From Strigamia acuminata (taxonomy: Eukaryota): a stretch of 64,000 nt of DNA. Below are positions 4,129 to 46,983 of the stretch, piece by piece. Where the stretch lies: contig OX442314.1 of assembly GCA_949358305.1 (NCBI GenBank), positions 31,062,001 to 31,126,000 of the forward strand, written 5' to 3'. The translations under genes and the position numbers were made by a program. Under the pieces are notes generated by a model. It saw only the letters and a list, made by a program, of their open reading frames with translations, had not been told where the DNA came from and did no database searches. How positions within the stretch are numbered: the first letter of the stretch is position 1; each line of letters begins with the position of its first letter.

Positions 4129-6333
4129 TTTTCGCTCGGAAAGAACATTTTTGTTTTAAATAATTTGTGTCATAATAATTTTTCTGTTTAGAATAAACTT
4201 TTTTTTATTTAATGTGAAACCTTATGTTAGATCCGTCTAAAACATTAGGTTAGGTGCCCATTAATTGCTTAATTGATTAATTAATTAACCACCATTACTT
4301 TTTGTGACGTCACGCTGACACTCTGCTTACTGTGGAGGTACAAATTCTATTGCTGCGGATTGGGATGCAGTGGGTCTATGTTGCATAGGAATGCGAGCAA
4401 ACGGTTCACCCATGTGCCTGGCGTTGCTTCGAATGTTGCGAGTAGTCGGGCTTGCTCAGCCGGTCGGTGTTGTCTGACCTCTTCGTTGTTGATTTGCCGC
4501 TCAGATATGAAGGGCAGAACACCACCATTTTGAAATTCATTGGGAATGAATTTTTTTACAAAGTTGACATTTTTTCCAACTTTGGTGAAATAAACATGTA
4601 TGAAAACAATCAAGAAAATTCATACCTTTAATTGCTTCTCGTTTATCATGGGTTCAATCAGCATTTCCTCATCTGTGGAAAGCACAAGTTGAACGTTCTA
4701 TATGACAACTTGAATTCGTTCAGAAGTTTGTATCTAAAATAGAAATATCAATGAAATTAGTCTCATCAAGAATATTGTAATTGAACTTAGTTAACATTTT
4801 CACTTACAAGATAATTCAAACTCATCTTCAATTAGGTGCACCAATTAATAAATGGTTACAAGCAACTGTTTAAAAGGGGGATAGGGTTTTCAATATTGTT
4901 TCATAACATTATTGCAAAATTGAAAATTTTACTTAAATTGCTTTAATGTATTATTACTGGTATTTTGTTTGGTAAATTGTGAATTTGAAAATTGAAATTA
5001 AAAATTACTGAATTTGTATTAGATATCCAAAATTTAGGGGGGAGGGGGGTAGTCAGCCTTGAAACGACCTTGTCACAGGGGGGGGGGGGGGAAGGGTCTA
5101 AAAATCCAAAAATTTGGTTTACCGGTACATAATTTATGAACGGCACCTAACCTCAGCCAAATGGGATGGGAGTTTTCACCATCTAGACATAGACCAGTCT
5201 TAACACTTTTTAGCACCCCGAACAAAAAAAAATCAGATGCTCCTCACCACAAAATAAATTTGTACATTTTAAGAATGACATGAGGAGTACAGTACATTTC
5301 AAGAGTCTGCATCCTTATTTCAAGAGTGACAAAGTCGTTCTAAACGAACGAATCTGAGTGTCACTACCCTCAAAATGGCCAAACACAACAGAAAATGTAA
5401 TAACACACTGACCTTATTGACTTTTAGGGGGATTTTTATGTTTGTGATATTTGCAAATTTGACGTTTGATGTGGAAACCTCGCCTAGCAGGAACAAGCAG
5501 GAATATTGACAGATTTTTTCTTCCCATGTTATGGAAATTTTCAAAAACCGAATTAAAGGTGAATATTTACAGATTCCTGGCTGTACGAACGATAATTGTG
5601 AGACTTGAAATAAAACTTACCCCGTCTTTGCTCGCACACCAGTTGAAAAATCAAGAAAACCGACGCCTGGGTGAAAAAGAACACACAAAAATGGCGCATT
5701 TTATTCCAAATGCGAGAAATACATCAACCGCCAGTAGATGCAGGTAAAAAGTCACTACACAAATTCATCATTTGAATGTCCGAGCGCGTGCTACACGTAC
5801 CGACAACAATAGACTATTATGTTACACAAACAAATGGGGGTATTCCTCTAATCTGTGGGCAAGATCGTTGCAAACCAACATGGCGTCCAAAATAACCAAC
5901 CTTGTGGGTTCGCAACGTTGCTGCTGATGGTGGCTTATTTCGTTGAATTTTGTCCTCAGATGGGTGGTTTTTCAATCTAATGCTTCATGCTTAGTTTATT
6001 TAACATTGTATCGTATTTACTTCACCGTTTCTTTTGAATTTTGCGACTTGATTTTATCAAATATTGCATTCAATTTCAATCCGTGCTTCGAGTTTCAAGG
6101 GAGTGGTCATTTATCAAATCAATAAAAAACAGGAAAATTCTGAGGAATGGAAATATTACTGTGAAAATTACTGATAATCTATGAAATTTCTAATATTTCG
6201 TCCAATTTTTATTTTATTTCAATAGATATTTGTTCTTTATTGATTTTTTCACCTACTCATCAATTTTGATACATGAAAGTTACAACTGTAAGCTGTCTAA
6301 AAAATCTTGGTGCAAACAAAATCAAAGGTAAAA

Positions 6334-14444: not shown

Positions 14445-16290
14445 ATCAAGGCACATATTAACTGCACATTAAGCTCAAGACAACACTGCTCTGTAACACT
14501 GAAATAAATTCTCCAGTTCGTCAAATACATTTCTCTTTGTTATTGTTTCTTATTTCTTCTTCTTTTTTCTGTGTGTTCTTGTTGATATTTGTCTTTTGAC
14601 TTTTGTCTTTTCCTGCTTTTGTGTGACATTTCTTTTCATTAGGTGTTCACTTTAATGTGATTATTCTGCTTTGATATAACATTTAAAATAAAAACTATAC
14701 AGAAAACTTAAGCTCTACATCACTGTATCGAACGGAGTATCATTCACTTCCAACCGAATAAATGCAGTGAAATTAGGTAAATCTTTCTGATAGCTGAATC
14801 GAATATTTAGCAAGAGCTTTCATACAGTGTTGAACACACAAAGTGTATGTTTCCAGCATTGCTGTGGTGTTATAAAAATAAATGGTAGGTAGCGATGGAT
14901 CGTCGTTGCAAAGCAGTCTTCCGATAACCTCCAAATTTTACTGTCCAACATTCAAAGCTGAACGAACAAAATCGTACAACTTCATTAGTTCTTCTTTTTT
15001 TATCGCCCATAAACAGTCATTAAAGTCAACGCAAGAACTCGTGTTTCTTTCGATGTTCAAAGTCAATTGAGTTAAGGTTGCAGGAACAGTCCATCGTCTC
15101 AGTCCATCTTCAAGAATGACGATTAAAAGTAAAAGCAGCTTTTGAGATTGTGATACACTAACATGAGGAATTAACTTTGGTGATATAAACCATCCAATTT
15201 TGCACACTCTTGCAATATGGCACGGCACATCTTCAATATCAGTTTACAAATGTCATCATCAATCTCACCTTTGTTCCATCGACATCGGTGTTCCACTGAC
15301 AATATGCGTATGTAAATCTGATCCGCTATCCTGGTGATGGACTTCGGATATAACAAAGATTATTTGTTTCTTCTATCATTGATAAAAATTCCTCGCACGG
15401 ACTTATATATATTTTTTGTGTTGACATACTCTTTATGACATGTGTAAAACTCAAAACTTATGAGGCCATCTTGGAGGATTTCCAGAACAATAGTGATTAG
15501 GGTTTGACACATTGACAGTGTTACTGATGGCAAACGGTTCGGTAAAATGATCCACCTATTTTCGCATGTGTTTAAAATATAACACAGATTCAAAATGTTT
15601 GATAAATATCATAAAGTCAAACTCACCACCATAGCTTATTGCTTCTCCTTGATATTGAAAATATTTTTAGTAAATATAAAAAAAATTATTTTTTATTTAG
15701 TGGTTTTATCTTACCACTGCTAATTTTTTTTTTTATCTCAAAGTTGTTTTTTGTACATTTCATTATGTGAACATCTCCAAAGGCATATATTTTTTATTTT
15801 TGTCAACTTGGTGTGGGAGAAAATTATTAAATTTTTTGGTCTTTCCAGAAATAGAAAGTGCACTCCATGTTTTCTTGTTACTGGTAGAACCATCACAATT
15901 GAATCCATTGACTTGTCCCAACATGATGTAATATGTTGGGACCTACGTTTAATAAAGGTGCGAATCTCTTCCTCTTGGATACAAATCTAAGTGTAGGCTT
16001 GTCAGCATCCGAAACACGGTTTTATAATGCGGTACATTTTAAGCTTAGCTATTTGTATCATGCAGGAATGATGACTTGCAGTAAATCTTTTGCTGAAACA
16101 TCATCTAGTGTGGCATTTTGTGAAGCAAAATACAGGCACGGATTGCTTACACTCTTTGCTTACACAGACAAAAATAAATTCTAACGCATGATTGGCATAT
16201 TCACATTTCTGATTTTCTGGAGTTTGTTAACCCAAATTTACAAATCCATCAAATTTGAATGTTGATTTCTTGAAGTCAAAGTTTCAGTAG
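14445..16290. repeat. Duplicated block (other copy 51169-52912): unknown gene remnant plus P-transposase remnant
   Basis: Colinear match with paired ORFs (14938-15228 and 51689-51979, etc.); P-transposase motifs at 15750-16290 on the minus strand. Confidence 0.9.
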
Positions 16291-20780: not shown

Positions 20781-21009
20781 GAAGATGCAGGTGTTGCTTT
20801 GATTTTCAACATCCTTGATTACGTTTTATTTCCCTATAGGAATGACAACAAGTGTTGTCTTTCATACGTTGAATGAAAAACAATATCACTGATTGTTAAA
20901 AGACAACATCACTTAATTATTATTATACGACAAAATCACTTAATTATTGTTATAAAAATACAAGATGTGAAGAAAATATTTGAGTTTTGGCGTGAACGTG
21001 TCCGACATG

Positions 21010-22084
21010 TGCGGCGATCCGGGTTTTTACTTAATAAATCGAGGAGAATTATCAAGCAATCGTCGTAGAGATGCCGTACAGGACTTCTACTCTGTGGCCA
21101 AATGTTTGTCTAGGGGAATGATTTTACACAGAGTAAAGGAAAAATTAGATAGTTTTAATTAGTTCAAAATACAGAGGAGGTATTATTTAGCAAAAGATAA
21201 TGTTTGGGGGTCGATCTGGCTTCTTCTTCAGTATCTACACTCACGGTTGACCGTTGGCTCCAAGATGGCGTCGATGGCGTCGCGTGAGCGCGGGATTTTA
21301 GCGGAGTAAACTCAACGCTAAAATACGTTGCTAAAATATACTAAAATCCTCGCGGAGCAAGCTCAACACGAGAACACGTCTTGCACACAGCGGTTTGATT
21401 ATTACGGAGCAAGCTCGACGTAACAATCCGTCTTAACACAGTTCGCCTTGTGGAGTTAAACTCGACACAAAGCCTTCAAATTGACAGAGCAAGCTCAATG
21501 TCAATTCCACACAGAAATGGCTTAAATTACGTGTAGTAATTCAAGCAGAAAGGCGCTATTCCGTACAGTTGGCACGGACCAGCAATGAATCTCAACTCTT
21601 CCAGATATCACAGATCACACTTAGCAGGGTTTGGCATAAGTTTGACACAGATGTGAATGGTTTGGAAGCAGAATCAAGAATGCGGGAAGAGTGGGCCAAA
21701 ACCGTTTAGCTCACTCCAAAATCTGCTCAGAAAAGCTGCGCAGATGACGAGTTGCACAAAGATCACACACGGCCGCCTTCGGGTCGTGTGCAACAATTGA
21801 GCTGGGCACGCGCGAGGGGAAGGGATGCTCCGCCCAGGCACACGCCTAGCAGCATCATCAAAGCAATGCACGCTGCAGCGCGATTGGTTGACGCTGTTGC
21901 TGGGCCAAAACTTGCTGCAAAACACAATATTATTTGGGTAATATTGTGTCTTGTTTTATATTTAATTAATATATATTTTATTTCAATTTACATTGAAACA
22001 AAACATATAAACTTGTTGAATATGTTTCTAAGACAATTTGGAAATATGGTGCGCACTCAAATGGGAATATTTGAGGTCACCACA
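21010..22084 (-). repeat. Element A 3' LTR
   Basis: Direct repeat of 47004-48078; PPT (minus-strand AAAAAGGGGGGAAG) at 22085-22098. Confidence 0.97.
21295..21506 (-). promoter_or_regulatory. Array of five bulged RNA hairpins (TAR-like) in the LTR of A
   Basis: Five units of variable stem + UU/UC bulge + GAG-loop-CUC; G-U pairs work only on the minus strand. Confidence 0.8.
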
Positions 22085-22256
22085 CTTCCCCCCTTTTTAA
22101 GAAAGAATCCTATTCTTTTCTAAAAGAGACAGGTAAGTATGAGAATAAATACACAAGGTTTCAAAGTAAAATGGAACAGGATATATATTTATTCTTTTTT
22201 ATTACAATATAAAAATAAAAAAGTAATTATTTTTAATGGACGGGTATGTTCCCTAA

Positions 22257-25094
22257 TTATTTAGGCAACATGTCCGTCGAATGATCGTTTGGATCTTTGT
22301 GCTCGGTGACGGTGCACAAAGATCGGCCGGCGTTCGGTCCTGACCGGAAGCCGGGGTTGATGTGAAGCCACACTTGTTTTATGCGGTTCACACCATCCCT
22401 TCGTCCAAAACCCATCTCGAAATACTCCTGCGGGTCTTGAGGCGTAATTCGGGCGAACACCAGGCGTTGATGCAGGATCCACGGCTGTTGTTCTTTGATG
22501 TGGTTCTCCAGCCACGCGAGGACTCGATTGCAGAGATCCTCGTTGTTTTGGAGAATCGTCTTCGTTGCGCTCGTTATGAAGCAGAAGGCGTATATCGAGC
22601 GTAAGCGTTGATAGGCTGTGAGGTAGGTGGCCATATTCAATCCCCTATCTCTTGGCGGCGAATCCTTTGGAGGTGGCGGTGGTGGCGGCGATTTCTTGCA
22701 GATCGAGAGCGATCTGGATCTGCGCGAAGCCGGGGCGCGCGTCTTTGGTCTTGCACCGCTGGCCACAGGCACGACGAACTCGCGATCGTCGCTGTCGATC
22801 CACTCCATTGGAGACGAGATGTTGCAACTCGGTGCCTCGGTTGCACGGGAAACACTCGACGTTGCCGTGATGGCAGCGTGGAGTGGAGCTGCGGATGACG
22901 GTGGTGCGCCAGCGGGACGGGCGGTAGCTCGTTCCGCTGCGCGTCGCTGCTTCAGCGCAGCCCATTCCTGCCGTAGTCGAATGGCGGATCCAGCCGGAGT
23001 TTCGCCAGTCGCCTCGGCTTGTTGCGTCAATTCGGCGAGCATCGTTGGAGGATCGGGGCGAACTGACTCCCAATCGTCCAGCAAGGCTCGTGGAAGCCCT
23101 AACGGCACGGTCCACAATCGGGTGGCGGCCGCCAGAGCCATTCGTAGGTCAGGAAAGACTCCTTGGAACAGGATTCTAAGTAGTCCTTCCGACAGCTTCC
23201 TGTGCATCTTCTGCAACATTCGTTGCAGTTGCTTGTCGGACTTGCACGACTCCAATTCTCGGGCAAGCCATTGCCATTCCTTCTCACCTTCGCGGATCTG
23301 AGCGAGCTGGTATTCGTCCAGATGCGCGAGGTACATCGTTTGGGCTGTCTCGGGAAATGATGAGAATCGTCTCCAGAGATCAGCGCACTCCTGTGCGGGA
23401 AATGGTTCCGGAGAGATGTGTGATCTCTCAAAACGAATGACCGTTGTCACTTGTGGCACGGGCACTGATGGGTCTGGTCGCATGTCGCTGGTGACTGGAC
23501 GGCAAGCGAACGGCAAAGAGGTGTTGACGTCTCCTTGACCGGCTTGCAATGCGGCGATGCGTCTATCTTCTTTCGCTATCTCGTCCGACCAGTCAATCCG
23601 GCCGGAGGAGGAAGCGCTAAGCTGTGAAGCGTTGGATCGTTCTTCACGCGACGAGAGTGAACTCCTCGTGGAAGATTGGCGCGATTGCACTCGAGGTCGG
23701 CTTCGGGATGTGGGTCTCGACACGGACTTCGAATGTCTTTTTGGCGGCGTCGACTCGCGTCGGTGATGCGAGCGATGACGAGTCTTTTGAAGTGGAGGTA
23801 ACCCTCCAATGGCGCCTTCCCCCGACGACTGTGTTGGGGAGGAGCGACGGCCACTGTAAGGCGACCTCGATGATCGTGACCTCGACGTGGAGCGCGGTGG
23901 CACCACGTGGATGGTGGAAGCGACCTGTACCCGGGGCTCAGGCTCTGGATACGGGTTTGGCACGAAATCAGCATGGAAACATCCGCCCATGGCTAATTGA
24001 TGCATTTCCGACTGGCATGTCGGCACCCAACGTTTCTTTCCGTCTGTTGTTACACGGAAAGATTCGTGGTAGAGGCGTACAACCTCGGCCTTGGTTTGGT
24101 CAAGACGTTGGAAGATGTCCTCCAAAATCTGTCGACGCTCCCACGCAGGAGCGTTGAAGTAACGGCGATGGTCTCGCGTTTCTTGAGCGATCACTGTGAA
24201 GGCGAAGTCGAGCAACACGTTTCGCAGTGGTCCGAAGGTGTCGCGCTTCATTGCCCACTCGAGGGCGTCGCGATGACCAAATCCATCGATTAAATAGGCG
24301 ATCCGAAACTTCGTTCCCCATCGCTTGTTTAAGGATCTGGAGAACTTGTGGCGGGCCGCCCAAAACGTCAGTCTCCCCTTGGACTTGATGATTTCCGGCG
24401 GCAATGCATGTCGCCAGACTCCAGGATCGGTCGGAACATCGGGGTGCAGTTCGAGATGCGTCTCCCGAAGCTGGATGATCTGTAAAATATTCGAAGAAAT
24501 AATTAAAATCCATTTTTTCGTGTAAAATAATTATTTCCGAATTTTCAGTGAATAAAATCACGGGTGAGATTTCATTCGATAGTTTAGATTCATTAAATTT
24601 TTCAAAATATTTGAAAAATCGTGAAAAACGTTGTTTTCGACGGCTATGTTTCAATGTTGGAGCGTTACCGTAGCAACGCCTCAAAAACGGGACACAGCGC
24701 CATCTGGTGATAAAAATGGCGGCGCCTTCTTATGAAGACGTTACCAACGAACTTTTTGCTTTTTTGAGCGAAAAATGCACTTTTAATTACTTTTCATGAC
24801 TGAAAGGTAATTTTATTTTAACTAATTTACCCGATCGTGTCTTTGTGCACGCGTTTCGCCATTCGGATCGGCGAATAGACCTCCTCGTAGGCGGGGTTGG
24901 GGCGGCGTGACCGGTAAATGGGCAGCAGCGTCGGCCAGAGCGGCTTGAGCTTCGGCGGACGCTTCGGCGGACTCTTCGGTGACATCCACGGATGCATTCG
25001 AAGTGTTTGCAGAACCAAGCAACGTCGAATTTGTTTCTAATTCGAGGCTGTTGGCGCCGGCTTCGCTTCCTTCTTTCGGTTCCTCTTCTTCCAT
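22257..25094 (-). CDS. Element A ORF3: spliced, about 828-aa Arg/Ser-rich accessory protein, not env
   Basis: Exon 25094-24831, phase-0 intron 24830-24480 (GTAAAT..TTTACAG), exon 24479-22257 in frame with the 715-aa ORF. Confidence 0.8.
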
Positions 25095-25304: not shown

Positions 25305-26816
25305 TTACGTTTGGGTAACGTCGTTGTTAGTGACGTCATCCAATCTTATCGTTTGATTGGTTTGCGTATGGCTTGGGGAATTGCTCCTTACGTCATACGG
25401 CTGATCTCTGGATCTCGAGGTTATCGAGGGGAGAAGACACATGTTGTTTTTTCCTCTCGGTTTACGAGTCCGAAGATTATATCTCTTTGTCGGCGAGGGA
25501 TTTATTGTATTTAAATCGCCGTCTTCATTGTCATCGGAGACTGAGTCAGATGAGTCTTTTATTTCAGATGTTTTTTGTTTCTTTTCTAAAAACACCTTTT
25601 TATTTAATTTTTTAGCAATTTCAAGCTTTTTGAAACTGTCACGAAGTTCAACGTCGTTATTCACGAGGTCTGACTCTATTTGTGGTTTGGATGAATTATC
25701 GACAGGTATTTTCTTTAATTCATCGTCATCTAACGTATTAATTATATTTTCAGTCTTTTGACCGACTTCTTCGCCTTCTAACCATACTTCCTGATCGAAA
25801 CTCGGGAAATACGGGGTTAATTCCGACGAATGGACAGCTGGAAATATTTCGTTATTCTCTAGCTTTCTCAATTCTACGGATCCTCCCTGTAATACTTTGG
25901 TTATTACATAAGGTCCTGTTCTTTTATCAGCGATGCCAGCTGCAATGCTGCGGGCAGCACTCGACAAAACATGAGAATCTCTCCAAACTAAATTATTTAA
26001 TTTAAAATTGGAGAACTTCTCACCTTTTTTAAGATTAACTCGTCTACGCAAATCTAACACATGTGACATCATGTGTTGATATGTTTCGGCGATAACGGCT
26101 TCTAATTTCTGCACGTATAAATGTGGGTTTTTTGGATCTACGACCAAAATTCCTTCAGGTATTCTTGGATCCCAAGGTACTCTGAGTTCGCGAAAAAAGT
26201 TAAGAAATGCGGGAGAGAAGTCTCTTCCTCTCGTCACCGTAGTTCTCAAACTAAATGCGAATTCACGCAAATATTCGTCCCATTTGGAATGAACAGATGA
26301 ATAAATTGCAACAAGATATTTGATGTCACGGTTAACCCTTTCAACCGGGTTAGCTTGTGGGTGATACGTTGAAGTTGGTGTTGGAACCATCTTGAACTTT
26401 TCACAAATTTTTTTAAAGACTTGGGCACGGAATTGCGGGCCGTTATCAGAAATAATTTTTCGAGGGAATCCCATGCTCATGGAAAGGTGATAAATGCAAT
26501 TTGCTACTTTTCCAGCAGTGGGGTTACACATTGGATATAATTCTGGCCAATGAGTTGCCACGTCAAGTATGACTAAAATATGTGTGTTGTTTTTGCGCGT
26601 CCGAGGTTTCGGGCCGGTCAAATCAACACTTAGGCAGTCAAATGGGCTGTAAGGACCCATTTGCGCTGCTTCAATTTGTCCTTTCGTTCGAGGTTTGCAA
26701 GCTTGACAACGCTCGCAGTGTCGAATGAATCTCGTAATGTCCGATTTCATGCCTTTCCAGGTATAAATTCGGCGTGCTCGATAAAGAGTTCTTGCAATTC
26801 CTGGGTGACCAGAAAG
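25305..26816 (-). CDS. pol: Element A pol, 3' part (integrase)
   Basis: H..CxxC zinc finger, DLTG, ISDNGPQF, NPVER DDE core and GPY motif; in frame with 41061-44027 once B is removed. Confidence 0.95.
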   Translation of the reverse strand, partial: LSGHPGIARTLYRARRIYTWKGMKSDITRFIRHCERCQACKPRTKGQIEAAQMGPYSPFDCLSVDLTGPKPRTRKNNTHILVILDVATHWPELYPMCNPTAGKVANCIYHLSMSMGFPRKIISDNGPQFRAQVFKKICEKFKMVPTPTSTYHPQANPVERVNRDIKYLVAIYSSVHSKWDEYLREFAFSLRTTVTRGRDFSPAFLNFFRELRVPWDPRIPEGILVVDPKNPHLYVQKLEAVIAETYQHMMSHVLDLRRRVNLKKGEKFSNFKLNNLVWRDSHVLSSAARSIAAGIADKRTGPYVITKVLQGGSVELRKLENNEIFPAVHSSELTPYFPSFDQEVWLEGEEVGQKTENIINTLDDDELKKIPVDNSSKPQIESDLVNNDVELRDSFKKLEIAKKLNKKVFLEKKQKTSEIKDSSDSVSDDNEDGDLNTINPSPTKRYNLRTRKPRGKNNMCLLPSITSRSRDQPYDVRSNSPSHTQTNQTIRLDDVTNNDVTQT

Positions 26817-26820
26817 TGGG

Positions 26821-28562
26821 TATGACGGTTTATAAGTGCTATTTATTAATAACACGGCCGAATTGAAAGTGTTTTCGGCCAAACCTGCATTTGTCAATGC
26901 TCCGAGTCACCACTAGATGGCGCGATTATAATTCAGCGGTAAATTCGAATTGCGAGTTAAGAAAACTGGTAAATAAATATAAGAATATATTTATTTGTAT
27001 GAAACAACACTTTATTAGGATTAATATAAATATATATTAAATGATTATTGTTCACACTAAAGTGATGGGAATCTCTAGTTCAGCAGAAACGGAGATTTGA
27101 TAATCCATCGATCAACCGATCAATGTGATTGGTGGATCCATTTCCGGTCCTGGGTATCCAGTTCCGGTTGTGGTGTGAATTAGCATATTGCTCCTCTGTA
27201 TCCACTTCCGGCGATACGGGATTGGAGGGATTCGTGGAACCCATGTTCCAATTGGTTGATTGGATTAATCCCTAATCCAGTCAGGTTATATAAACCCAAA
27301 CAACCGGCCATTCCGCAGCTCTGTTTGATTATTTCTGTTTGGTATTGTTACTTAAGAAATATGATTCGTTGTTCACGTAAAAAACCTTTTGGTTCTTTGT
27401 TGATTTATTCGCAAAGAACCGTTGCATGATTCTACAGAATCATGCCACCGCCGGCAATTGAAGTCGAAGTGCTGGGATCATTATGTTGCATAAATGTTAC
27501 AGTTTACGGTTGCGACGCCGAAGGAGAACCCGCCGTTGTGCAATTCAGTATCCTCCGGACAGGACCATGTGGTCTTTCTCGGTATGAACGTATTCCGTTA
27601 CCGCGAGTAGCATCGGTATTGTTGAGAATTGGTTCCTTCACCGGATGGTGCCAAAGCAGTCTGTTTTACAGTAACCACGAGTAGCACCAAGTGTTTGGCA
27701 AGCTGATTCTCATGGTATTCGATGCCAAAGTAGTCGGTCTATTATTAGTACCGCGAGAGATTATACTGCTGTGCGGAGCCGCGAGCTATCGACTCCTGTG
27801 TACGTGATACCGTCAATCGCTAGACGAACGACCGTGTTGCGACGCAGGGGACGCTTGATACCGTTCTGCATTGCAAGGCGTATATTTCTTTCGATGGCAA
27901 TTGTGTGTTGCGACGGGAAGCTTAATCTTCATTTTATTTATAACAGCAAAACTTAACTTGACAACCAGTTGGACAAATCAAGTCTAAAGACTTAATCTTA
28001 TATTTAACTCAATATAACCGATAAAGTTGACGACAACTTATCCGCGAAATATCTAATAGAAACTCACAACGACACGAATTAAATATAATTCGTAAGCGGA
28101 ATATTGATAAGTAAATGGATACATTTACTTACACCAATATCCTCCCAAAGTTGTGGCGGTGCAGACAAAGTCAACCGCAATGCTCAGATCATTCGATTTA
28201 TCGACGTGCGATAATTTACACAAGCGAACCAAGAAACCAGCGAAGCCGTATCGGACTCCAGAACGCAGCCATCCGGCTTAAGATGACATCTATAATCAGG
28301 TCGAGCGATGGGGAAACCGCTCCCATCCCACGGACACGTAATGATATTATTTTAGGGTCATTTGGCCAAACCATTTGTATAGTTTAGTAGTTATCTAACG
28401 GGCCAAATGTCGGCATTAGTCTTATGTACAATTTAGCATTGATATTATTGTTTACCAACAATAAACTGTCTTGTAGTTATCTCGTATTATATTCACTGTT
28501 TATTTATTGCGATCTCTTCCCGGTACCATTGTTAAATGGGAGTTGTGGTCGTCACCGTCACA
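26821..28562 (+). repeat. Element B 5' LTR
   Basis: TATGACGG...CCGTCACA termini; TATATAAA at 27287; AATAAA at 28460. Confidence 0.97.
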
Positions 28563-28564
28563 CG

Positions 28565-28583
28565 TGGAGGTCCCACCGAGATT
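28565..28583 (+). promoter_or_regulatory. PBS complementary to tRNA-Gln
   Basis: TGGAGGTCCCACCGAGATT two nucleotides after the LTR. Confidence 0.9.
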
Positions 28584-29633
28584 AGGTTGCAATTAAATTC
28601 GATTGAATTGCAACAGTGAATATTGGAGATAAATATTTAACTAAAAGATTTAGTTAAAAATAGACAGATTAGATTTTCAGTTTATATTTCCATGTGAAGA
28701 AGTTAAACTGATGAAATAGAAATGTGTAGTAGATTTTTCTTAATTATTTTCGTTCGAAGATTTAAGGGATTTCAAAGACTACCATCTAATCTCACACGGA
28801 GATCAGGTTGCAATTAATTCGATTGAATTGTAAAAGTGAATTTCTTTTTGAGATAAATAAAGACCAGAAAATTTTGTAAATAAAATTTTACAAAATACAG
28901 TTTTAGAAAGCATATTTTGTTTTCTCGAAGAAAACAGGATTATACAATTCTAGACAAAGGAATTGCAACCAGATTTTTAAATCTATCACACGATGGCTGA
29001 GATAGGTTTATTCGAAGTATTAAATACTAAAAACTCCAGGAGAATTCGATGAATATAATTACAGAATAGCTGTATTTTTGGTATTTATTTTATTTTGAAA
29101 ATATAGAAATACAAAACGAGTTTGAACATGTTTTAAACGAATCACAAGAAAAGAAAATCTTGATAAATATATGGAATTTCGAAGTAAATCCAGTACTAAG
29201 GAGAAGTTACATGATTGGAAACAATTAACAAAATTTATTAACAGTAAATTTATTTTATTTTTCGTGAATTGTACAATTTTTGGGAATATTTACGAATATC
29301 ACTCGAAGGAATTTTATTTTATCGGTGAAAAAAAAAAAAAAAAACTAAAAAAGTCAAAAAGAACGGACTTAGTAGAGAACTGATAACGAAAATGATACGT
29401 TCGTTATACAATCATTTGATAACGAACCAGCCAATCAGGAACTAGGAGATCTAAGGATCCCCAGCCCCCTGCTATTAAAGGAGAGCCAGATCAGACTGAG
29501 ATCATTCGCTTCCAGACCAGACCAGCAGACGTGTTTCAGTAACCATCCTGACCGCGCCATCCGATCCTAGTTACGATTCGAAGTTCCCTCGCTAAATTAG
29601 TAAGACGACCGATTCAATTATATTTTTATAAAA

Positions 29634-32016
29634 ATGGATCCAAACAATCTTCCTAACGAAGAGAAAGTGGCCGAAGAAAAAGCCGCAGAAGAAGTCTCTA
29701 GCTTGGATTCAAGTTATGTAAAACTTTGTGATCAAACGGAAATGATTCCCGATGAACTCACACAGTTTTGTACGCATTATGAACTAGATAGAACACAGTT
29801 CAATACCATAATTGAAGCTTCTGAATTTGTGACGAAGCGGGCGTTACGTAACATACGTATTAATCCAACTCCGGAAAAACGAGTAGAACTTTCGAAGGAG
29901 AGTTTGGCAAAACATAATTCTGAAAAGGACTCAATTCCTTCGCCAAAAGATCTGCCGGAAGAAAACAGATCACGATCTAAAACTCCACAACGCAAGTTGG
30001 GAGATCAAGCAAGAGTTAAAACTCCGTCAGTTCACAATCAAGATATTCGAGAGTTATTTCGAACATCAAGCAAGGAATCGCTTGATCGGTCCAGTTTGGG
30101 AAATAGAACTCCTCACTCCCACAACGCCAGTTGTCACAATACTCCAAGTATTTCGGAGGCCGGAGGATCTAATTTTTCAACTTTTCAACCTGAAAATGCT
30201 AAAAAGCAACCCAATCCGCATATTTATACGGAAAATGGGACGAGACATTTTGCCAAACAAACCCCTAAAGGGCGAGGCAATAAATCCGCCATTCGACGGA
30301 AGTTATCTCCACTACCATCTCCAGTCTTACCTCAAAATCGACAAGAACAATTAAGATTAGACGAAGTGGAAAAAGAGCGACTTCGTCAAGCAGCAATTAA
30401 TCAAAAGAAGATTAATGACGAAAAAATTCGTCAAAATAAGCTCAACGAAGAAGCTGCTAAACAAGCCGAAGTTCGTAAGAAGGCGGCAGAAGACGAAGAA
30501 ATCCAACAAGTTGCCAGCAGCCAAGATAAGACCTCACCAGGTCAAGTGTTGAATTTAGATTTTAACAAACTCTTAGACGAAATCCAGAGACAACGGGATG
30601 AGTTGAACCAACGACAAAAAGAACTCGAAGAAACGACAACTCTTTTACATCGCGCCGAAGACAGCCAAAGGGATAGAGAAAAACTCTTAAATTCTCGTCT
30701 TAATCTTGCGTCATCCACCCATGCTAGTAACGGAAGTGTACCTCGGGACGAGTCAAACCCCTCACGTGCGTCAACGGGTGACGTTCCAAGTGCACACTCT
30801 TCTGCAGGAAGCTCTACCGGAACTAGACTTCCCTCGGAAGAAACCAATATGTCGTTTGAATATATGCTAAAGATGCAACAAAATATGGCCGCCCAATTCC
30901 AAAAACAATTGGATAGTCGAATGGATACATTCGTTCAAACTCAACAAGCTACTGGACCTCAACGGTCTAATAATCCAGGACCCAGTAAAGTCTTTTTCAA
31001 AGGACAAGACCTTCCAGTTTTCGATGGAAAACAGGAGGATATAGATAAATTTTTATCAGTAGCTAAAACAGTAGCTATTTCCAAGGGACTGACCCTGGAC
31101 GAGATGGTTAATCAAGGTATTCCAACCTACTTGTCAGGATTGGCCCAACAATGGTATGATGAGAATAAAACCAAGTTTACCAACTGGGAAACCTTCGTAG
31201 AATCATTTCGTGAAGAATTCGACATGTTTCCAACTACTCGACTCCGAAATTTACGAAAAAGTAATCCAAGGAGACGATGAACCTTTATATGAATTTCTAG
31301 TCAGATTCACTAAAGCCCAAGGATCGTACTCCGAAAGAGGAAATGTTGCCACGCTTTTCGACAACTTGAATTGGACAAGTTACAATAGATTAATCGATCG
31401 AAATCTATACAGGAGCGATTCAGTAGATAAAATCTTTCAATTCGTACGAACGAATAGAGCACTCTTTGAACCCCAAAGAATCCGTACAGAGAATTCCAAA
31501 GAAATTGATAAAGTAGTATCTAACAACCAGAAGTATTCTAAGGATACAAAAAACACGAGACCTTCTGCCCGATCCACCCAAATGATGGAAATAGAGCCGG
31601 AAGAGGAAACAACTGAAGTCAATGACTTGACAGAAAATAACATATCAATGGATAATTTATTATGTGCCATGTCAGAAAATCAGACAGGGAAATGTTTTCA
31701 TTGTAAACAACCAGGTCATTTCAAAAGAGAATGTCCTCTGCTTCCAAAGCGAAAATTTAGCAATAATTTCCCTGGAAATAATAATTCCAATAACAATAGC
31801 GCTAATCAGCAACCGAACGAATTTAAGCGACCACGCCAAAATTGGGTAACTGCCGAAGCTATTGATCAAAAAATGGAAGAATTAAAAACTGACATGCAGA
31901 CTAGTATGCAAACTACGATAAGTAAGACAGTGTCGGATTTATTTAGTAAATTCTTAGACCCGAAGAACGCCACTACGGCACCAATTACTGAAACCCCACT
32001 GGTTCCAAAAAACTAG
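29634..32016 (+). CDS. gag: Element B gag, split by a frameshift near 31230
   Basis: Coiled coil, capsid motif LPVFDG..L.G.AQQWY, zinc knuckle CFHCKQPGHFKREC. Confidence 0.9.
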
Positions 32017-32060
32017 TGGCGGGGGTCCTCGAACCCCCTATCATCAATTCCGGAGGAATT
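32007..32060 (+). promoter_or_regulatory. -1 ribosomal frameshift signal (gag-pol, element B)
   Basis: A AAA AAC before the gag stop, followed by a GGGGGT/ACCCCC stem; the -1 frame is pol. Confidence 0.85.
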
Positions 32061-35000
32061 TTACCACCAGACTTGGAACAAGCACTTTCCGAAACTTTGG
32101 ATAATTTGACTATTCAAGATAAAGAAATTAAGCGTGCTCGGCCTAACCGGAAGACACGGAAAAGAAACTGGAATTATAAGTTTAAAATCGCATCAAATAC
32201 ACCCTTTTCGGCAGAGGAGACAGCAAACCCGTTCTTGAATTTTCACGACGACCTGTTTTCTCTAGATAAGGGGGACGAATCTTTAGCTCGACTAATACAA
32301 GATACGTCCAATCTTAATATTCGCGACGAATCCACCAGTTCTAGTGGAGGGGTATTCGAGAATTTACAATCAATGATTGATAATTTGAATCCCGACTCCA
32401 AATCTTCCAGATTTGCGAGATTAAAATCTTACATTAACAAGAATCAGTTAAAACGAAAAGATGGCATTGAACGAATTAATAAATTGGGAAATCACATCGA
32501 CGACCCCCGAATGAAAATTACGATAGGTGGACTCACCTACAATGCGTTGATGGACTCAGGAGCCACACAGTGTTTTATTGGGTTACAATTACTAAGTAAA
32601 ACTTGTGCATCTCCCGATTTCATACAAGATTGTCCGAAACACATGAGAGTTTGCGCAGTTGGAGTTACTCATATTCCACTGGGACAAATTACTTTGTGTG
32701 TACAATGGGCAGACGGAGCAGAATTCACACCGATAAATTTTATCATTTTGGATAATAATGTGTGTGGATTAATTATCGGGCATAATTTTATGCGCCGAAC
32801 TAAGATTAATTTAAATCCAGCACGAGCTGTATTTACTTGCGACAGCAAGTCCGACTGGACTGCACCCTACGAAACTGACGAGTTGAATTGTAATTTAGCT
32901 CGAGTACAAATATTGACTGACAATACAACAGCCACACACACACCAGATAATTGGGAAGAATTGTTGGTGAAGGATTGTGACTGTTCAGATGAGGAGAAAA
33001 GTAAATTACGTGAAGTAATTGCTAGTGTTAAGAACGTCTTTAGGGATAAAGTCGGATGTACTAACATAATAAAGCACAAGATCACCTTTAAAAAGGATGT
33101 AACGTGGAAAAAACAACCGTTTCGAATGTATAACCCTGCTAAAATAGCCATTATGACTAAATTAGTAGAAGAATTAGAAGCGGATAATTTGATCGAAAGA
33201 GCTACTGGACCTTACATAAGTCATCCAGTGATCGTAGCCAAACCAAATGGTACTTATCGTTTATGTATCGATTATCGGTGGTTGAATGCAATCACCGAAA
33301 TCAACGCCATACAAATGCCAAGTATTGATTTGTTACTCCACAATACAAATCAGGCAAAATATTTCACGTCTCTTGACCTTACCAAAGGTTATTATCAGGT
33401 CGAGATGGACGAGGAAGATAGACAGAAAACAGCCTTTTATACTCCGAAAGGCAATTACCAATTTGTCCGCATGCCTTTTGGTCTTTGCAATGCGCCGTGT
33501 ACATTTCAGTTCTTAACGGAACGAGTGATGGGCGAAGCATTATACAAACACGCGTTAGTCTATTTGGACGACGTGATAATCTTCTCCACCACTTGGGAGA
33601 AACATCTTGAACATATCAAAGATGTGTTAGAAAGACTAGATAAGGCCAACTTATCAGTAAATAAAGAGAAATCAAAGTTTGGAAAAACTACACTCAAATT
33701 TTTGGGTCATTTGATAACTCCAACTGGATTAGCACCTGACCCAGACAAGATAGTATCCGTTAGGAAATATCCAACTCCTAAGAATTCCAAGGATATTCAA
33801 CGTTTTCACGGCCTGTCAAATTTCTTCCGGAAATTTATTCCCGAACATGCAAAAATTACTAGGCCTCTAACTAGCATGATGCATGATAAAGCAGTGTTCG
33901 AATGGGGAAAAGAACAAGAGACAGCTTTTGAGGCCATAAAAAATATTTTATGCGACGAAACCCAAGTTTTGTTAATGCCAGATATGATGAAACCATTCGT
34001 AATCTTGACAGACGCGTCACATGATGGACTTGGTAGTGTGTTATGCCAAGATGTGGAATTCTTCGATGAAGGAAAAAGAGAAATGATCATGACTCCTAGA
34101 CCCGTAGCTTATGCTAGTCGAGTCTTACGAGGGGCAGAAGTACGCTACTCAACACCCGAACTCGAGTGTTTAGCAGTAGTGTGGGCAGTCGACAAATTCC
34201 GACCGTATATCGAATATACGACATTTACTTTGGAATCAGACGCCGAAGCATTGAAATGGCTGATGGGAACACCAGAACCTTCGGGACGATTTGGTCGTTG
34301 GGCAATCAAACTTCAATGTGGCGCCTTTAAGATTAAATATCGACGAGGTACCCAGAATCAAGTTGCCGATGCCTTCTCGAGAGCGCCTTTGGAAATCGAA
34401 GATATTCCAGAGAATGATTATTGTGAGCCAATCGAGATTACTCAATTCTGGCCGGAATGGGACGGAAATCGAGAAATTATTCGAAGGAATAATAGAGAAG
34501 ATTGCCAATTTCTAACGAATGTGCAGCTTCATTTCGATTATTCCAAATTATTATACAATACTTTGGAAAAGGGGGAGAAGATGGATGAAGCTACAGAAGA
34601 AACACTATTTAGTGCTTTAACTGAAGTTTTAAAGGAAGTTCCACCGACTCGAGAAGAGATTATAGAAGCTCAACTGGCCGATAAAGAGTGTAGAATGATA
34701 ATCGATCATCTGAAACGGGATGAAATCGAACAAAGAAAGTTTAAGAAAACTAAAGAATGGATGAAAGCAGTCCAAGGTTACCAATTAGATTTTCAAGAAG
34801 AAAATGGTAATGAAATGCTGATTTATTTCAAACCAACGTTTGAAGAGGAATTGAATGACTCCGGAAACGGATTTAAAGCTGTCATTCCACCTTCATTAGT
34901 ACGAAGAGTACTGTTTGCCTGTCACGGACATCCATTAAGTGGACATGCAGGGATGAGTAAAACGCTCGAACGAGCGAAACTCATATATTACTGGCCGAAA

Positions 35001-36308
35001 ATGAATAAAGACACTCGCAATTATGTTCGTAGTTGTATTCATTGCCAGCAATACAAGCCCTGTCAACATAAGAAACATAGAGCGAGTTATACTCCTCATA
35101 ACATGTCTTACCCTTGGGAAGTAATCTGCATCGATTTAATGGGTCCCAAACCGACAGGAAGAAGCCAATACAGATTTGTATTAGTAATTATCGATCAATG
35201 TACCAAATGGGTAGAATTATTCCCTTTAAGTAAGGCATCTAGTGAATCTATCGTGAATAGGTTAGGAGAGGTAATTCATAGATGGGGATACCCAAAGAAA
35301 ATTGTTAGTGATAACGGGAGCCAATTCATATCCACAATTTATGAAGAGTTTTGTAAAAAACACAACATCAGAATGGCTCATGTGAGTCCATATCACGCTC
35401 AGGCCAATCCTACAGAAAGGGCCAATAGGGACATTAAAATAATGTTAGCCCTTTATTCTGATATTCACTCCCATTGGCCAAGATTCTTAAACGAATTTGC
35501 ATTTGCCTCGAGAACGGCTAAATCAGAAGCTACAGGCGCAACGCCATTCTTATTGAATACAGGAAGAAATGTACCTCTTCCCTTTGATCCTCGGATCATT
35601 CAACATGCGAATGCATTTGACAAGAATAACCCGGAAGAATACGTATATAATTTACTTGGAATTTTACGTCGAGCACATCAAGCGATGCACTTGCGTATCC
35701 AGGCAAATTATGAGCGACACGACAAGATTCACAGAAATAAATTTCACATTTGCGAATATACTGTCGGTGATTTAGTATGGAAGGCCACTCACATTCTTTC
35801 AAATAAAGAGAAAGGAATTACTAAAGGTTTCGCAGAGAAACGAGATGGACCATGGGAAATTACGGAAGTTTTACCAGGAGGTGCTTATAAGTTGAGAAAG
35901 TTAGTTGATGGGTCAATAGAACCATCCATAAATACTGATGATCTCTCACCGTATATCCCATCCTACCCGATTGAAACTTGGACACTCGATCAAAAGAGTG
36001 GAAAAGTAGAGAATCATCCAAACCCTGATTGGATGAACGAAAGTTCGATCATAAATAATTCAAGTGAATTAAATAATCAAGAATTAGGAGATAATTCTAC
36101 TAACATGGAATTAGACCCCGAAAAAGTTACGGCTCCCGCTTCAAAAGAAAGCGACATCATAGTTGATAATCCAAAACATGATTATAACCTTAGGAAAAGG
36201 AAAAGAAGTTGTGAACTTTCACAACTGCAACCTCGTACGAAGCGAATTTCTACGACAGATCAAGAATACACAACAGATTTTATACATCTGATTCAAGATC
36301 GCCGCTAG
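32016..36308 (+). CDS. pol: Element B pol (PR-RT-RH-IN), intact
   Basis: LMDSGA, YLDD, TDAS, HHCC, SDNGSQF and GPW motifs in a 1430-aa ORF. Confidence 0.97.
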   Translation: MAGVLEPPIINSGGILPPDLEQALSETLDNLTIQDKEIKRARPNRKTRKRNWNYKFKIASNTPFSAEETANPFLNFHDDLFSLDKGDESLARLIQDTSNLNIRDESTSSSGGVFENLQSMIDNLNPDSKSSRFARLKSYINKNQLKRKDGIERINKLGNHIDDPRMKITIGGLTYNALMDSGATQCFIGLQLLSKTCASPDFIQDCPKHMRVCAVGVTHIPLGQITLCVQWADGAEFTPINFIILDNNVCGLIIGHNFMRRTKINLNPARAVFTCDSKSDWTAPYETDELNCNLARVQILTDNTTATHTPDNWEELLVKDCDCSDEEKSKLREVIASVKNVFRDKVGCTNIIKHKITFKKDVTWKKQPFRMYNPAKIAIMTKLVEELEADNLIERATGPYISHPVIVAKPNGTYRLCIDYRWLNAITEINAIQMPSIDLLLHNTNQAKYFTSLDLTKGYYQVEMDEEDRQKTAFYTPKGNYQFVRMPFGLCNAPCTFQFLTERVMGEALYKHALVYLDDVIIFSTTWEKHLEHIKDVLERLDKANLSVNKEKSKFGKTTLKFLGHLITPTGLAPDPDKIVSVRKYPTPKNSKDIQRFHGLSNFFRKFIPEHAKITRPLTSMMHDKAVFEWGKEQETAFEAIKNILCDETQVLLMPDMMKPFVILTDASHDGLGSVLCQDVEFFDEGKREMIMTPRPVAYASRVLRGAEVRYSTPELECLAVVWAVDKFRPYIEYTTFTLESDAEALKWLMGTPEPSGRFGRWAIKLQCGAFKIKYRRGTQNQVADAFSRAPLEIEDIPENDYCEPIEITQFWPEWDGNREIIRRNNREDCQFLTNVQLHFDYSKLLYNTLEKGEKMDEATEETLFSALTEVLKEVPPTREEIIEAQLADKECRMIIDHLKRDEIEQRKFKKTKEWMKAVQGYQLDFQEENGNEMLIYFKPTFEEELNDSGNGFKAVIPPSLVRRVLFACHGHPLSGHAGMSKTLERAKLIYYWPKMNKDTRNYVRSCIHCQQYKPCQHKKHRASYTPHNMSYPWEVICIDLMGPKPTGRSQYRFVLVIIDQCTKWVELFPLSKASSESIVNRLGEVIHRWGYPKKIVSDNGSQFISTIYEEFCKKHNIRMAHVSPYHAQANPTERANRDIKIMLALYSDIHSHWPRFLNEFAFASRTAKSEATGATPFLLNTGRNVPLPFDPRIIQHANAFDKNNPEEYVYNLLGILRRAHQAMHLRIQANYERHDKIHRNKFHICEYTVGDLVWKATHILSNKEKGITKGFAEKRDGPWEITEVLPGGAYKLRKLVDGSIEPSINTDDLSPYIPSYPIETWTLDQKSGKVENHPNPDWMNESSIINNSSELNNQELGDNSTNMELDPEKVTAPASKESDIIVDNPKHDYNLRKRKRSCELSQLQPRTKRISTTDQEYTTDFIHLIQDRR

Positions 36309-37122
36309 TGATAGCGTATTTTTTTAAATAAAATATAAAGTATTTAAAAGATAAAAAATCGGGTCACTTTTGACCCACAAATTAATTATGGATAAATCAT
36401 AACCTATAGGAGAGTATGGTAAAAATACCCCGGGTAGAGAGTAGAAGATTTGTTCTCTCACAAGTTTCACACACATGTGCGAGCCAACTTTGACACCTGT
36501 GTCGATAGAGAAGTTCGTCGCGATTTCTTTCAAAGAAAACCTCGAGATTCATAGTAAGAATCATGTATTACCAATAAAATTGGAAAGTAGGTACCAAGAT
36601 TTAAATGTTATAATCCTCTAATGATAGAAAAGGACGAGAAAACTTCGGTGATTATTTTCGTCTGAAAAGAGACGAACACGTGACCTCGGCGTGAGGAAGA
36701 AAAATTTCTCTTTCGAGAAAATTCGAAATATCATCACGACGGTTCAACGCTGTACTAGAGTGTTACGTGTAAGTAGTGATAAATTTAAATATATCAAGAG
36801 ATATTCACGACTATTTTATATATAAAATTAGAATTCTACGTTGGCAGAGAACATCTTCGCTAAAAGCAACGAGTTTTGTCAATTAAAAAATCGACATCAC
36901 ATCATTGTGAATACTTAAGTGGATTCCGGAGATTCCTAGTGTAAGTATTCTAAAGATAATTCTATCGAATATTACGAATAATAAAAAGCCGCGCATGACT
37001 CCGATATAAAAATATATCGAAACCATCGAGGAAGTTGATAAATTTTCACGATAGATGGCGGTATAAATTTAGTCAGTTAAAATCGTATTGATAAGTTTTC
37101 TATGTTATTTTTCTCTAGAAAA

Positions 37123-38814
37123 ATGGGAAAAAAGATAGAAAAGAAGAGGAAGTATGTGCTGATTGAATCCTCCTCCTCCGATGAGGAAGTGGTGGAACCT
37201 CCTACGTCTGCCGCCGTATTCGTAGAAGGGTGTCCCAAAACACCTGTGATCATCAACGCACGAGGATGGGACATTTTAAGTTGGGCCCGTGAGCATCCCG
37301 AACTGCTCCCCGCCGAACTTGGACCACCCGGGGTCCCCACCTTACAAGAAGGGCCTGCGAAAAAGGAAACTGTTTCAAAACAATTTGTTATCCCGAAGAT
37401 AACAAAGAAGACGGATGATTTCAGCAGAAATAATCCGCCTATAGAGAAAAATCAGCCGAGTACTAGTCAATCACGAAAGGTGGAGATTGTGTACAACCGA
37501 GTCAAGTCGCCGGAACGAAGAAGAAAATCTCCTCCAGCGGAAACTAAACGCCGCCGAACCTCTGAAGACGCTACACCTTCCTCTTGTACTGGTCAGGAGC
37601 GTTCAAAAAGAGAATACGTTAGGTTTAACGATTCACCAGACCGAGATCGGGAAAAGAGGTCGTATTCTTCCTACCGAAGGTCCGACCAACCTAGGAATAG
37701 GCCAAATACCAGCGCATGGTCAGATCGCCAAAAGTTGGCGAATAAAGTCCGTCAGATTCAGAAAAGACGTGATCAATGTAAACGAGATTCGGAGAACGGC
37801 AAACCACACGACAATATGGTACTCTCGAAGGACGAAGTGCCATGTCCTTTTTGTTCCGCCGTCGGGTGGGTCTCGGGATCGGGAACCGGAGGCCACCTGG
37901 CGCAATGTTCCAATTGCGAGGGCACAAAGAAGCGGCCCAAAAGCCAACCTTGGCGCCCCAGCTTTCTACCATTTGTGGTCAAGGGGATTCACCCTCCCCC
38001 AGCCAGGATGTGGGCAACTTGCCCGGAGTGTAAAATTGTCCTCTCCAGTGACGGAAGATCGCCGTACATCAGCCCGGAGTTCTTGAACGCCATAACCACT
38101 CCACTAGGAAGGGAAATGCAAGATCTGAGAATTCCGCCAGAAGCTCTAGAGAGCTCCCAAAGACCACGAAGTACGACAGTCGTCGATAAAGGATGTCAAA
38201 CGGTATCCAAGAAGAACGAAAAAGAAGCCGAAAATGAACTTCTTGCGGAACCCTTTTTCCCTCCACCAGGAGCGAAAATTGCGCATTTATTCGAATACGA
38301 GGTGAGCTACTATTTTCCGACACTTTTTAGAATTGCCGAGAAAATTACGGAACAAATACGCCAAGGATCTACTGACCCTTCGAACATCAACTATGCAGTC
38401 CATCTGATGAAGTTGATATTTAACGCCAATCGGGGCGAATCTTTTGCCGTGCTGGAGCACATTTGGACACTGCTAATTGACAGAGTCAACACCGACGGAA
38501 GAGGATTAATAAGCCCTTCATGGTTCTACGGACTTCCCTGCATTGCGGAAATATACGACGCTTCAAAGAAGGTTATTGAGGAAAGTTATGAGTTAGTTGA
38601 GAAGACGCCAGAATATGAACCACGGTCTCCAGAGTACGCGCCGGAATCTCCACCCACAGAAGATATAGGTGAAGGTTCAAAAGAACCCAATTTCGTCATC
38701 GACCGAAAACCAGCGGAATTTCTTCCACTAGAAAAATCCGAAGTCGGCGAGTCCAGCGAGACTCTTAAGAAAGAAAGTGAAGGATCGGAGTCCGATGAAG
38801 AAGAAGTCAAGTGA
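37123..38814 (+). CDS. Element B ORF3: basic, Cys-motif accessory protein, not env
   Basis: Open 570-aa frame; acceptor-like TTTTTCTCTAG (ending 37118) just before ATG 37123; Arg-rich tracts; CPFC, CSNC and CPEC. Confidence 0.8.
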   Translation: MGKKIEKKRKYVLIESSSSDEEVVEPPTSAAVFVEGCPKTPVIINARGWDILSWAREHPELLPAELGPPGVPTLQEGPAKKETVSKQFVIPKITKKTDDFSRNNPPIEKNQPSTSQSRKVEIVYNRVKSPERRRKSPPAETKRRRTSEDATPSSCTGQERSKREYVRFNDSPDRDREKRSYSSYRRSDQPRNRPNTSAWSDRQKLANKVRQIQKRRDQCKRDSENGKPHDNMVLSKDEVPCPFCSAVGWVSGSGTGGHLAQCSNCEGTKKRPKSQPWRPSFLPFVVKGIHPPPARMWATCPECKIVLSSDGRSPYISPEFLNAITTPLGREMQDLRIPPEALESSQRPRSTTVVDKGCQTVSKKNEKEAENELLAEPFFPPPGAKIAHLFEYEVSYYFPTLFRIAEKITEQIRQGSTDPSNINYAVHLMKLIFNANRGESFAVLEHIWTLLIDRVNTDGRGLISPSWFYGLPCIAEIYDASKKVIEESYELVEKTPEYEPRSPEYAPESPPTEDIGEGSKEPNFVIDRKPAEFLPLEKSEVGESSETLKKESEGSESDEEEVK

Positions 38815-39318
38815 CTCGCGGAGTTAAGTGCTAAAATTAGAAAACTTTAAAAAATGTTAGAATTAACGTAAAAATACAAGAGTATTCTGTTTAAAAACAA
38901 TTTAAATAAGCATTTTGTGATATGAAAAGTCATGTTTTAAAGGAAAATCAAGAGATGATCCTAAAAAAAAGAATAATTTTTTAATATTTATTAATGAAAA
39001 GCTAAAAAGAAATAATTTACCAAAAAATTATGTTAAAATTCCAGTTATTTGAAATAATAATTGTGTGAAGAAATGAGACTAAGTATTGTAAAGTTTCAAG
39101 TTTGTTTTATTGTAACCAAATAATATTTTATTCTTGATAATTCATTAAAAAAGAATTGTTGCGCACATCAGAAATATGAAATTTATTTTGAGTCACACGC
39201 ACACGCACTCCGCTGTTCGGGATGGAAAAGTCCTGTTCTGAGATATTAATAAAGTCATTTCGCAAGAATAACATAAACTTATGAAAAGAATTCCTAAGTT
39301 GAGTGATTAAGGGGGATG

Positions 39319-46911: not shown

Positions 46912-46983
46912 TTTGTCAAATTGAAAAAGAACAATGGAAATAAAGGATCTTTTTGCAAAAATCGGATTTTAACAATCAAAACT

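Follow-up and report, generated by a model that had tools for sequence, protein, structure and literature searches.

The 64-kb window, by which we mean the whole stretch of Strigamia acuminata DNA that was analysed, is a nest of at least three LTR elements, in which element A is inserted into the older element C and element B is nested in A. Element A is a Ty3/Gypsy LTR retrotransposon. It has LTRs with TG...CA ends, a target-site duplication, a primer-binding site that is presumably tRNA-Pro-like, a polypurine tract, gag, and a pol in the order protease, reverse transcriptase (RT), RNase H and integrase (Table 1). The 5' and 3' LTRs show 4 differences, and the element is young. Its pol is split inside the integrase zinc finger by the insertion of element B (about 26820-41060). 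Because the gene and LTR layout of element A sets its sense strand (minus), this strand is known independently of the hairpins described below. In a quick tree of 33 rows, the RTs of elements A and B group together (SH-aLRT 99), with A on a long branch whose placement is unsure. The LTR of element B holds a long structured region (27400-27950, plus strand, with a twin near 39900-40450; z -3.0) between a TATA-like site at 27287 and an AATAAA at 28460. This region carries three GTTGCGACG words and four CCRCGAG words and is without the TAR-type core. The whole nest is enclosed by a further long direct repeat (1-5829 and 52598-58764, 97%), with two inverted arrays of a 22-base unit (58900-60979) at its right end.

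Table 1. Features of element A and of the neighbouring nested elements, with positions in the window
Feature	Position	Strand	Details
3' LTR of element A	21010-22084	minus	1075 bp, TG...CA; target-site duplication CATG at 21006-21009
Poly(A)-signal-like block	21125-21173	minus	UGUA (21173), AUUAAA (21159-21154), then a U-rich and GU-rich stretch
Helix S, predicted	21237-21291	minus	9 bp, 21291-21283 with 21245-21237; buries donor-like GUGAGU starting at 21244 (47238 in 5' LTR)
Hairpin 5	21295-21324	minus	G-C base, UU bulge, UUUA loop; twin 47289-47318
Hairpin 4	21346-21375	minus	G-C base, UU bulge, CUUG loop; twin 47340-47369; rival predicted fold
Hairpin 3	21397-21428	minus	G-C base, UC bulge, CUUG loop; twin 47391-47422
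Hairpin 2	21445-21473	minus	G-C base, UC bulge, UUUAA loop; twin 47439-47467
Hairpin 1	21478-21507	minus	A-U pair below bulge, UU bulge, GAG/CUC, CUUG loop; twin 47472-47501
Polypurine tract of element A	22085-22098	minus	
ORF3 predicted exon 2	22257-24479	minus	740 codons, RS-rich region
ORF3 predicted GT-AG intron	24480-24830	minus	351 nt, 32% GC, phase 0 at both ends
ORF3 predicted exon 1	24831-25094	minus	ATG at 25094, 88 codons, 264 bases, 58% GC, acidic, Ala-rich
Acceptor-like AG upstream of ORF3 exon 1	25103	minus	
pol 3' part of element A	25305-26906	minus	integrase
pol 5' part of element A	40998-44066	minus	protease, RT, RNase H
gag of element A	44015-46968	minus	overlapping frames 46126-46968 and 44015-46141; Retrotrans_gag, zf-CCHC
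Arg-rich patches, Gag of element A	second gag frame (44015-46141)		residues 113-129 and 272-290
Primer-binding site of element A	46984-47001	minus	
5' LTR of element A	47004-48078	minus	1075 bp; target-site duplication CATG at 48079-48082
Element B third ORF	37081-38814	plus	577 residues, 3 CxxC, weak C2HC zinc-finger match (E 0.0015); acceptor- and donor-like sites upstream
Element C LTR pair	14445-15936 and 51169-52690	minus	95% identical; gag and protease 48455-50489

A preliminary description of this DNA had reported five bulged hairpins on the minus strand of both LTRs of element A. All five were found as written, and the set in the other LTR lies at 47289-47501. The hairpins are 29-32 bases long and follow one another at intervals of 33-52 bases. 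Pre-miRNA hairpins measure about 60 bases or more, and an LTR-encoded microRNA cluster was ruled out by size. All five units share a core that reads purine, U, pyrimidine, G, A, G, pyrimidine, a 2-3-base loop, purine, C, U, C, pyrimidine. The 2-nt bulge that starts with U and is followed by a G-C and an A-U pair is invariant, as had been claimed, and the third pair above the bulge (G-C) is invariant as well. A fourth, Y-R pair is kept as C-G in three units and U-A in two, and the loop above it is UU or UUA. Four internal mismatches occur in the stems of the five hairpins; as previously reported, all are G.U on the sense strand (chance 1 in 16). The loop G(CUUG)C, to which stability had been attributed, is indeed known as a stable tetraloop, in which a C-G pair is partly formed (excerpt of PMC10401711), but it is carried by only three of the five hairpins.

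The array was compared with what would arise by chance. A search of both strands of the window for the core with a lower stem of at least 5 pairs returned ten sites only, namely the five hairpins in each of the two LTRs. Among dinucleotide shuffles of the LTR (n = 2000, stem of at least 6), 1994 were without such a hairpin, 6 had one and 0 had two. By a rough estimate, about one hairpin head in a thousand or more would be expected to show this core and layout by chance. When its own stretch is folded alone, each hairpin is the minimum-energy structure (z -2.4 to -5.1), and the sense strand is more stable than the antisense strand in 4/5. The outer stems had been said to differ in sequence and still pair, and this holds: the lower stems are only 42% identical among units, 65 of the 70 cells (93%) in the five-unit alignment pair, and both sides change in 8 of 14 lower-stem pairs. 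The covariation score was 0.77 for the five units, against 0.32 +/- 0.08 for shuffles (0/500 reached it) and at most 0.20 for slid partners, and it is to be read as a score on five paralogous units, the same ones from which the structure was drawn, rather than as an independent test. A looser strand-bias test over the whole LTR was null (12 G.U vs 13 A.C), and a 6 to 0 count of G.U to A.C in the LTR appeared only under a cut chosen afterwards (at least 9 flanking pairs). A covariance model of the five units recovered its ten training sites alone, at 36-42 bits, against 15.7 bits for the best score elsewhere, so that a sixth unit is absent and elements B and C have none. An Rfam search gave no family at threshold; its 5 weak matches were all far below it and none was a TAR family. 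Short words recur in the spacers between units (CTGTGT, AAGACG and ATTTTAG), suggesting that the units arose by duplication.

Variation within the family, which seems to be present in many copies, was taken from the contigs (1575 and 582) of two public runs of one study, possibly the source sample, with 40 of the 127 variant places listed. Two of these 40 listed substitutions fall inside the 151 hairpin bases, where 5.6 were expected (P 0.07), and 0 of the 40 fall inside the 61 core bases (P about 0.10), so that both depletion tests remain above P 0.05. Both hairpin substitutions turn a G.U into an A-U, and the stem G.U of hairpin 2 reads A-U in most of the contig depth. Small insertions are seen among copies at the base of hairpin 1 (21504 and 21507), as are low-depth joints that omit two or more units; LTR-wide, 8 of 19 paired variants break their own predicted pair. 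The variation agrees with selection on the hairpin fold, short of proof. We regard the array as a real, selected-looking RNA array with a TAR-type core. Where contigs end at 21477 and 21508, copies that are more distant seem to retain the bulge of hairpins 1 and 2 together with their GAG/CUC core; in these copies, of which only one arm is visible, the loop type seems to be swapped and stem letters changed.

The core had been identified as the arginine-binding motif of lentiviral TAR. In TAR, the pocket consists of A22 as the base and U23 as the cap, in a triple with A27-U38, with arginines on G26 and G28 and the pairs G26-C39, A27-U38 and G28-C37 (excerpt of PMC6189040). When set against these positions, the five units are identical letter for letter at the purine base, the U, the G-C, the A-U and the G-C, which upholds the identification at the level of secondary structure. 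All five also have, in sequence and secondary structure, the components of an arginine sandwich, that is, a bulge pyrimidine able to form U.A-U, a purine below and a G above. Judging from this match, each bulge U would very probably form a U.A-U triple and make an arginine pocket at the next G. HIV-1 TAR shares with the array the purine base, the U-first bulge, the G-C, A-U, G-C and Y-R pairs and the location in an LTR (excerpts of PMC6189040 and PMC7864049). In contrast, the hairpins of element A have a 2-base bulge and a 2-3-base loop instead of a hexaloop, occur in five copies and belong to a non-lentiviral element in which a Tat-like protein was not found. The six-base apical loop of primate-type lentiviral TAR is absent from all five.

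The arginine sandwich was thought to be exclusive to retroviral TAR until it was found in 7SK, which has several, one of them with a secondary structure identical to the TAR bulge (excerpt of PMC6189040). Since 7SK carries sandwiches too, the core marks an arginine pocket rather than a Tat circuit. Like the array, 7SK stem-loop 1 has several sandwich-type bulges per RNA and 2-base pyrimidine bulges (excerpt of PMC6189040); it differs in that its four sandwiches are stacked in one helix, whereas element A has one per hairpin, and in that 7SK is a host RNA that binds HEXIM. Taken with the copy number of the core, the likeness to both RNAs suggests that the five hairpins very probably serve as a multi-site dock for an arginine-rich protein.

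Where the array lies relative to the ends of the transcript bears on what such a dock could do. A layout of UGUA, AUUAAA and U- and GU-rich sequence is that of established 3'-end processing signals. The AUUAAA that the preliminary description had placed downstream of the array lies within such a block, and because of this poly(A)-like signal sense transcripts should carry the array at their 3' end, whether it lies in U3 or in R. An initiator-like TCATTG is present at 21588, upstream of the array as described, but it is just one of eight loose initiator-like matches, and in a promoter motif scan of the LTR no initiator was accompanied by a correctly spaced TATA or DPE. It had also been held that a location in untranscribed U3 would count against the array, which is mistaken. 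Transcription of a retroelement carries U3 into the 3' end of the genomic RNA, so an array in U3 would exclude only the Tat-like reading and not a function as RNA. The LTR start (positions 1-305; 21780-22084, minus) folds very strongly as sense RNA (z -6.3, 0/100 shuffles), and a 20-pair hairpin there buries an AATAAA at 21982. As this strongly folded start includes U3, U3 and R cannot be told apart by RNA structure alone.

One hint for a location in R is the donor-like GUGAGU, which begins 51 bases past the array and is the sole one downstream of it among the three donor-like matches that the 5' LTR and leader contain. The helix predicted to bury this site, helix S, had a probability of 0.8-0.9 when the whole LTR was folded and of 0.45 under a 200-base span. 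Its closing pair is G-C here and A and U in 87-98% of the contig depth, the two bases being counted separately without linkage; this is an apparent compensatory change in the predicted helix, at a single pair whose two bases both lie at CpG positions. In the LTR context, hairpins 1-3 come out as good predictions. Hairpins 4 and 5 have a rival predicted fold; their own pairing probability was about 0.47 and 0.9 in the whole LTR and about 0.06 each with a span limit of 150, and local folding favours the structure without these two hairpins (-45.8 vs -41.4 kcal/mol). In a competing 14-pair helix (21289-21354, minus), which overlaps helix S, the 3' arms of hairpins 4 and 5 pair with each other. 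In these fold models, the 14-pair helix is a possible switch linked to the donor-like site. Foamy viruses have a structured splice donor in R, upstream of the poly(A) signal (excerpt of PMC3694450). The donor-like site of element A is similar in its location in the LTR upstream of a poly(A) signal and in the structure able to hide it; it differs in that the hidden donor is predicted from one helix and one compensating pair.

We then considered which protein of element A could occupy the array. ORF3, an open frame of 757 residues (22257-24530; about 830 if spliced), looks like a spliced two-exon gene. Given its in-frame two-exon layout with a low-GC intron, element A probably faces the problem of exporting unspliced RNA. 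The predicted first exon has 17 Asp/Glu in 88 residues. The ORF3 frame has 28 RS/SR dipeptides, 0 CxxC and at most 4 Arg per 10 residues, and Gag has 6 Arg in 10 residues and 7 Arg plus 2 Lys in 15. No Pfam family matched ORF3, and homologs numbered 0 among 7993 candidates (lengths 416-1325) and 0 in 1.84 billion representatives, with no usable Atlas match. It is not similar to ORF3 of element B (E 0.53), and its single-sequence structure model, with a pLDDT of 40, has no interpretable fold. A lentiviral Tat is small, with a Cys-rich domain and a dense arginine-rich motif; ORF3 does not fit this description and has no family match. The proposal that ORF3 is a Tat-like partner was thus not borne out, given its 0 CxxC, an arginine patch (4/10) weaker than that of Gag (6/10) and an empty homolog search. 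These features suggest that ORF3 is not a Tat homolog and that Gag is a serious rival ligand. The proposal of a multivalent protein-binding RNA in a Tat/TAR-like circuit therefore survives in part: the arginine-binding-type motif is repeated and likely multivalent, but on the Tat side the TAR hexaloop is absent and ORF3 is without CxxC. Gag contains the word RHRS twice (44015-46141, residues 119 and 276) and ORF3 once (22257-24530, residue 251), against 0/3 of the element B proteins checked; this is a post hoc lead for an RNA-binding peptide.

We lean slightly towards a ligand that is encoded by element A and acts after transcription. Within this, our favoured though tentative proposal, drawn by analogy with Rex and CERV and possible rather than probable, is that ORF3 is the ligand, is made from a spliced mRNA and licenses the export of unspliced genomic RNA. 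Each bulge U would make its U.A-U triple and thereby offer an arginine pocket at the next G. The ORF3 mRNA would be spliced from the donor-like site just after the array, so that gag-pol becomes an intron, and the binding of several ORF3 molecules to the array would shift the RNA from splicing to export. A possible route is the competing fold, which would tie hairpins 4-5 to the donor-burying helix S. In an export system of this kind, a spliced mRNA encodes an accessory protein, which multimerises on a structured response element of the unspliced RNA; the candidates in element A are ORF3, with its predicted in-frame GT-AG intron, and the structured array upstream of the poly(A)-like signal.

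Known export systems offer partial parallels. The RexRE lies in the 3' LTR and the RmRE overlaps the 3' LTR (excerpt of PMC12789967), and Rev-like export requires multimerisation (excerpt of PMC10746203). Element A resembles HTLV-1 Rex/RexRE and MMTV Rem/RmRE in having a structured RNA that lies within or overlaps the 3' LTR, an accessory gene predicted to be spliced and plausible multimeric binding (excerpt of PMC12789967). In contrast, RexRE and RmRE are stem-loop structures, not arrays of TAR-type hairpins, and ORF3 is far larger, with no similarity. In Cer1, an LTR retrotransposon of C. elegans, RNA is exported by a spliced accessory protein, CERV, which like the predicted ORF3 is a large orphan spliced accessory protein of an LTR retrotransposon (excerpt of PMC10309623). 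CERV has a Cys-loop domain and a shown role in export, whereas ORF3 is without CxxC or detected similarity. Evidence against ORF3-driven export is that ORF3 has no homolog or interpretable fold, that its arginine patch is weaker than that of Gag and that the sister element B has an ORF3 but is without the core.

The densest arginine patch among the gag and ORF3 proteins of element A is that of Gag (7 Arg and 2 Lys in 15 residues; 6 Arg in 10). The hairpins could accordingly be repeated sites for the Arg-rich patches of Gag, marking the RNA for packaging or for Gag-led transport. A site in the LTR is, however, present on spliced and unspliced RNAs and so cannot alone select the genome, and Gag carries in addition a CCHC knuckle, the module generally used for packaging, which recognises single-stranded G and not an arginine pocket. 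We regard Gag docking as rather unlikely. The dock could instead serve a host arginine-rich protein, either as a 7SK mimic that draws HEXIM/P-TEFb or through an export or splicing factor, with an element protein unneeded. The several arginine sandwiches of 7SK (excerpt of PMC6189040) and the direct binding of host export factors by constitutive transport elements (excerpt of PMC10746203) speak for such a dock. However, when the base under the bulge of 7SK was changed to G-C, the classical sandwich was preformed and HEXIM binding was lost (excerpt of PMC6189040), and 4/5 units of the array have this G-C base. Elements B and C, in the same host, are without the core, and we consider host docking unlikely.

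If the array were near the 5' transcript end, bound ORF3 could recruit P-TEFb and free paused polymerase, in the manner of Tat and TAR. The exact TAR core fits this reading, and with TCATTG at 21588 as the start the array would span about +80 to +290; the donor-like site follows the array as in the R of foamy viruses (excerpt of PMC3694450), and the acidic predicted exon 1 of ORF3 may resemble an activation region. However, the LTR has no initiator with TATA or DPE support to place the start, ORF3 has neither CxxC nor a Tat-like match, and a 2-3-base loop replaces the hexaloop, which in HIV receives an insertion of cyclin T1 (excerpt of PMC2775740). Activation of this kind is therefore improbable. 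We give an equally low standing to the stronger form of this idea, in which a Gypsy element would have independently evolved a Tat/TAR-type circuit and an acidic-headed spliced ORF3 would recruit the elongation machinery without the TAR loop. Bovine Tat may act independently of the loop, which the excerpts consulted here did not confirm. If such a circuit were true, RNA-tethered transactivation would no longer be a lentiviral peculiarity. Finally, there may be no arginine pocket at all, the TAR match being coincidental and the array a decayed tandem repeat, a set of DNA enhancer sites (near-palindromic TYGAGYTTRCTC) or hairpins that pace folding around the donor or poly(A) signal. The recurring spacer words, which point to duplication, and the null strand test across the LTR are in line with this. 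On the other hand, the stems pair in 93% of cells at 42% identity, a feature that DNA sites could do without. Each of the four internal mismatches is a sense-strand G.U, and a role in structure alone would leave the bulge U and the three pairs above it free to vary. We find the absence of a pocket improbable.

Having weighed these readings, we return to export by ORF3 as our tentative proposal, and to the array as the firmer result. Relatives of element A are distant: the best RT-RNase H identity was 46% among the 120 matches listed of 2976. A metagenome scan gave 4 relative loci at 32-36% identity, 0 of them with the core, and viral contigs gave none. DNA patterns for two hairpins hit 69 viral loci, of which 0 had a lower stem of at least 5, and 0 metagenome loci. 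No such array in a retrotransposon was described in the literature found, in a search that mostly left subscription journals outside; an LTR survey has passages on lentiviral TAR (excerpt of PMC2664473). New here are also the spliced-looking ORF3 and the predicted donor-burying helix S with its apparent compensatory change. If true, the arginine sandwich motif would, after TAR and 7SK, have been put to independent use a third time, in the five-fold array of a retrotransposon, whose natural stem and loop variants would show what the pocket requires. If ORF3 is the ligand, array and protein would be the cis and trans partners of RNA regulation in a non-retroviral LTR element, for which CERV supplies a protein, with no RNA target named in the excerpt of PMC10309623.
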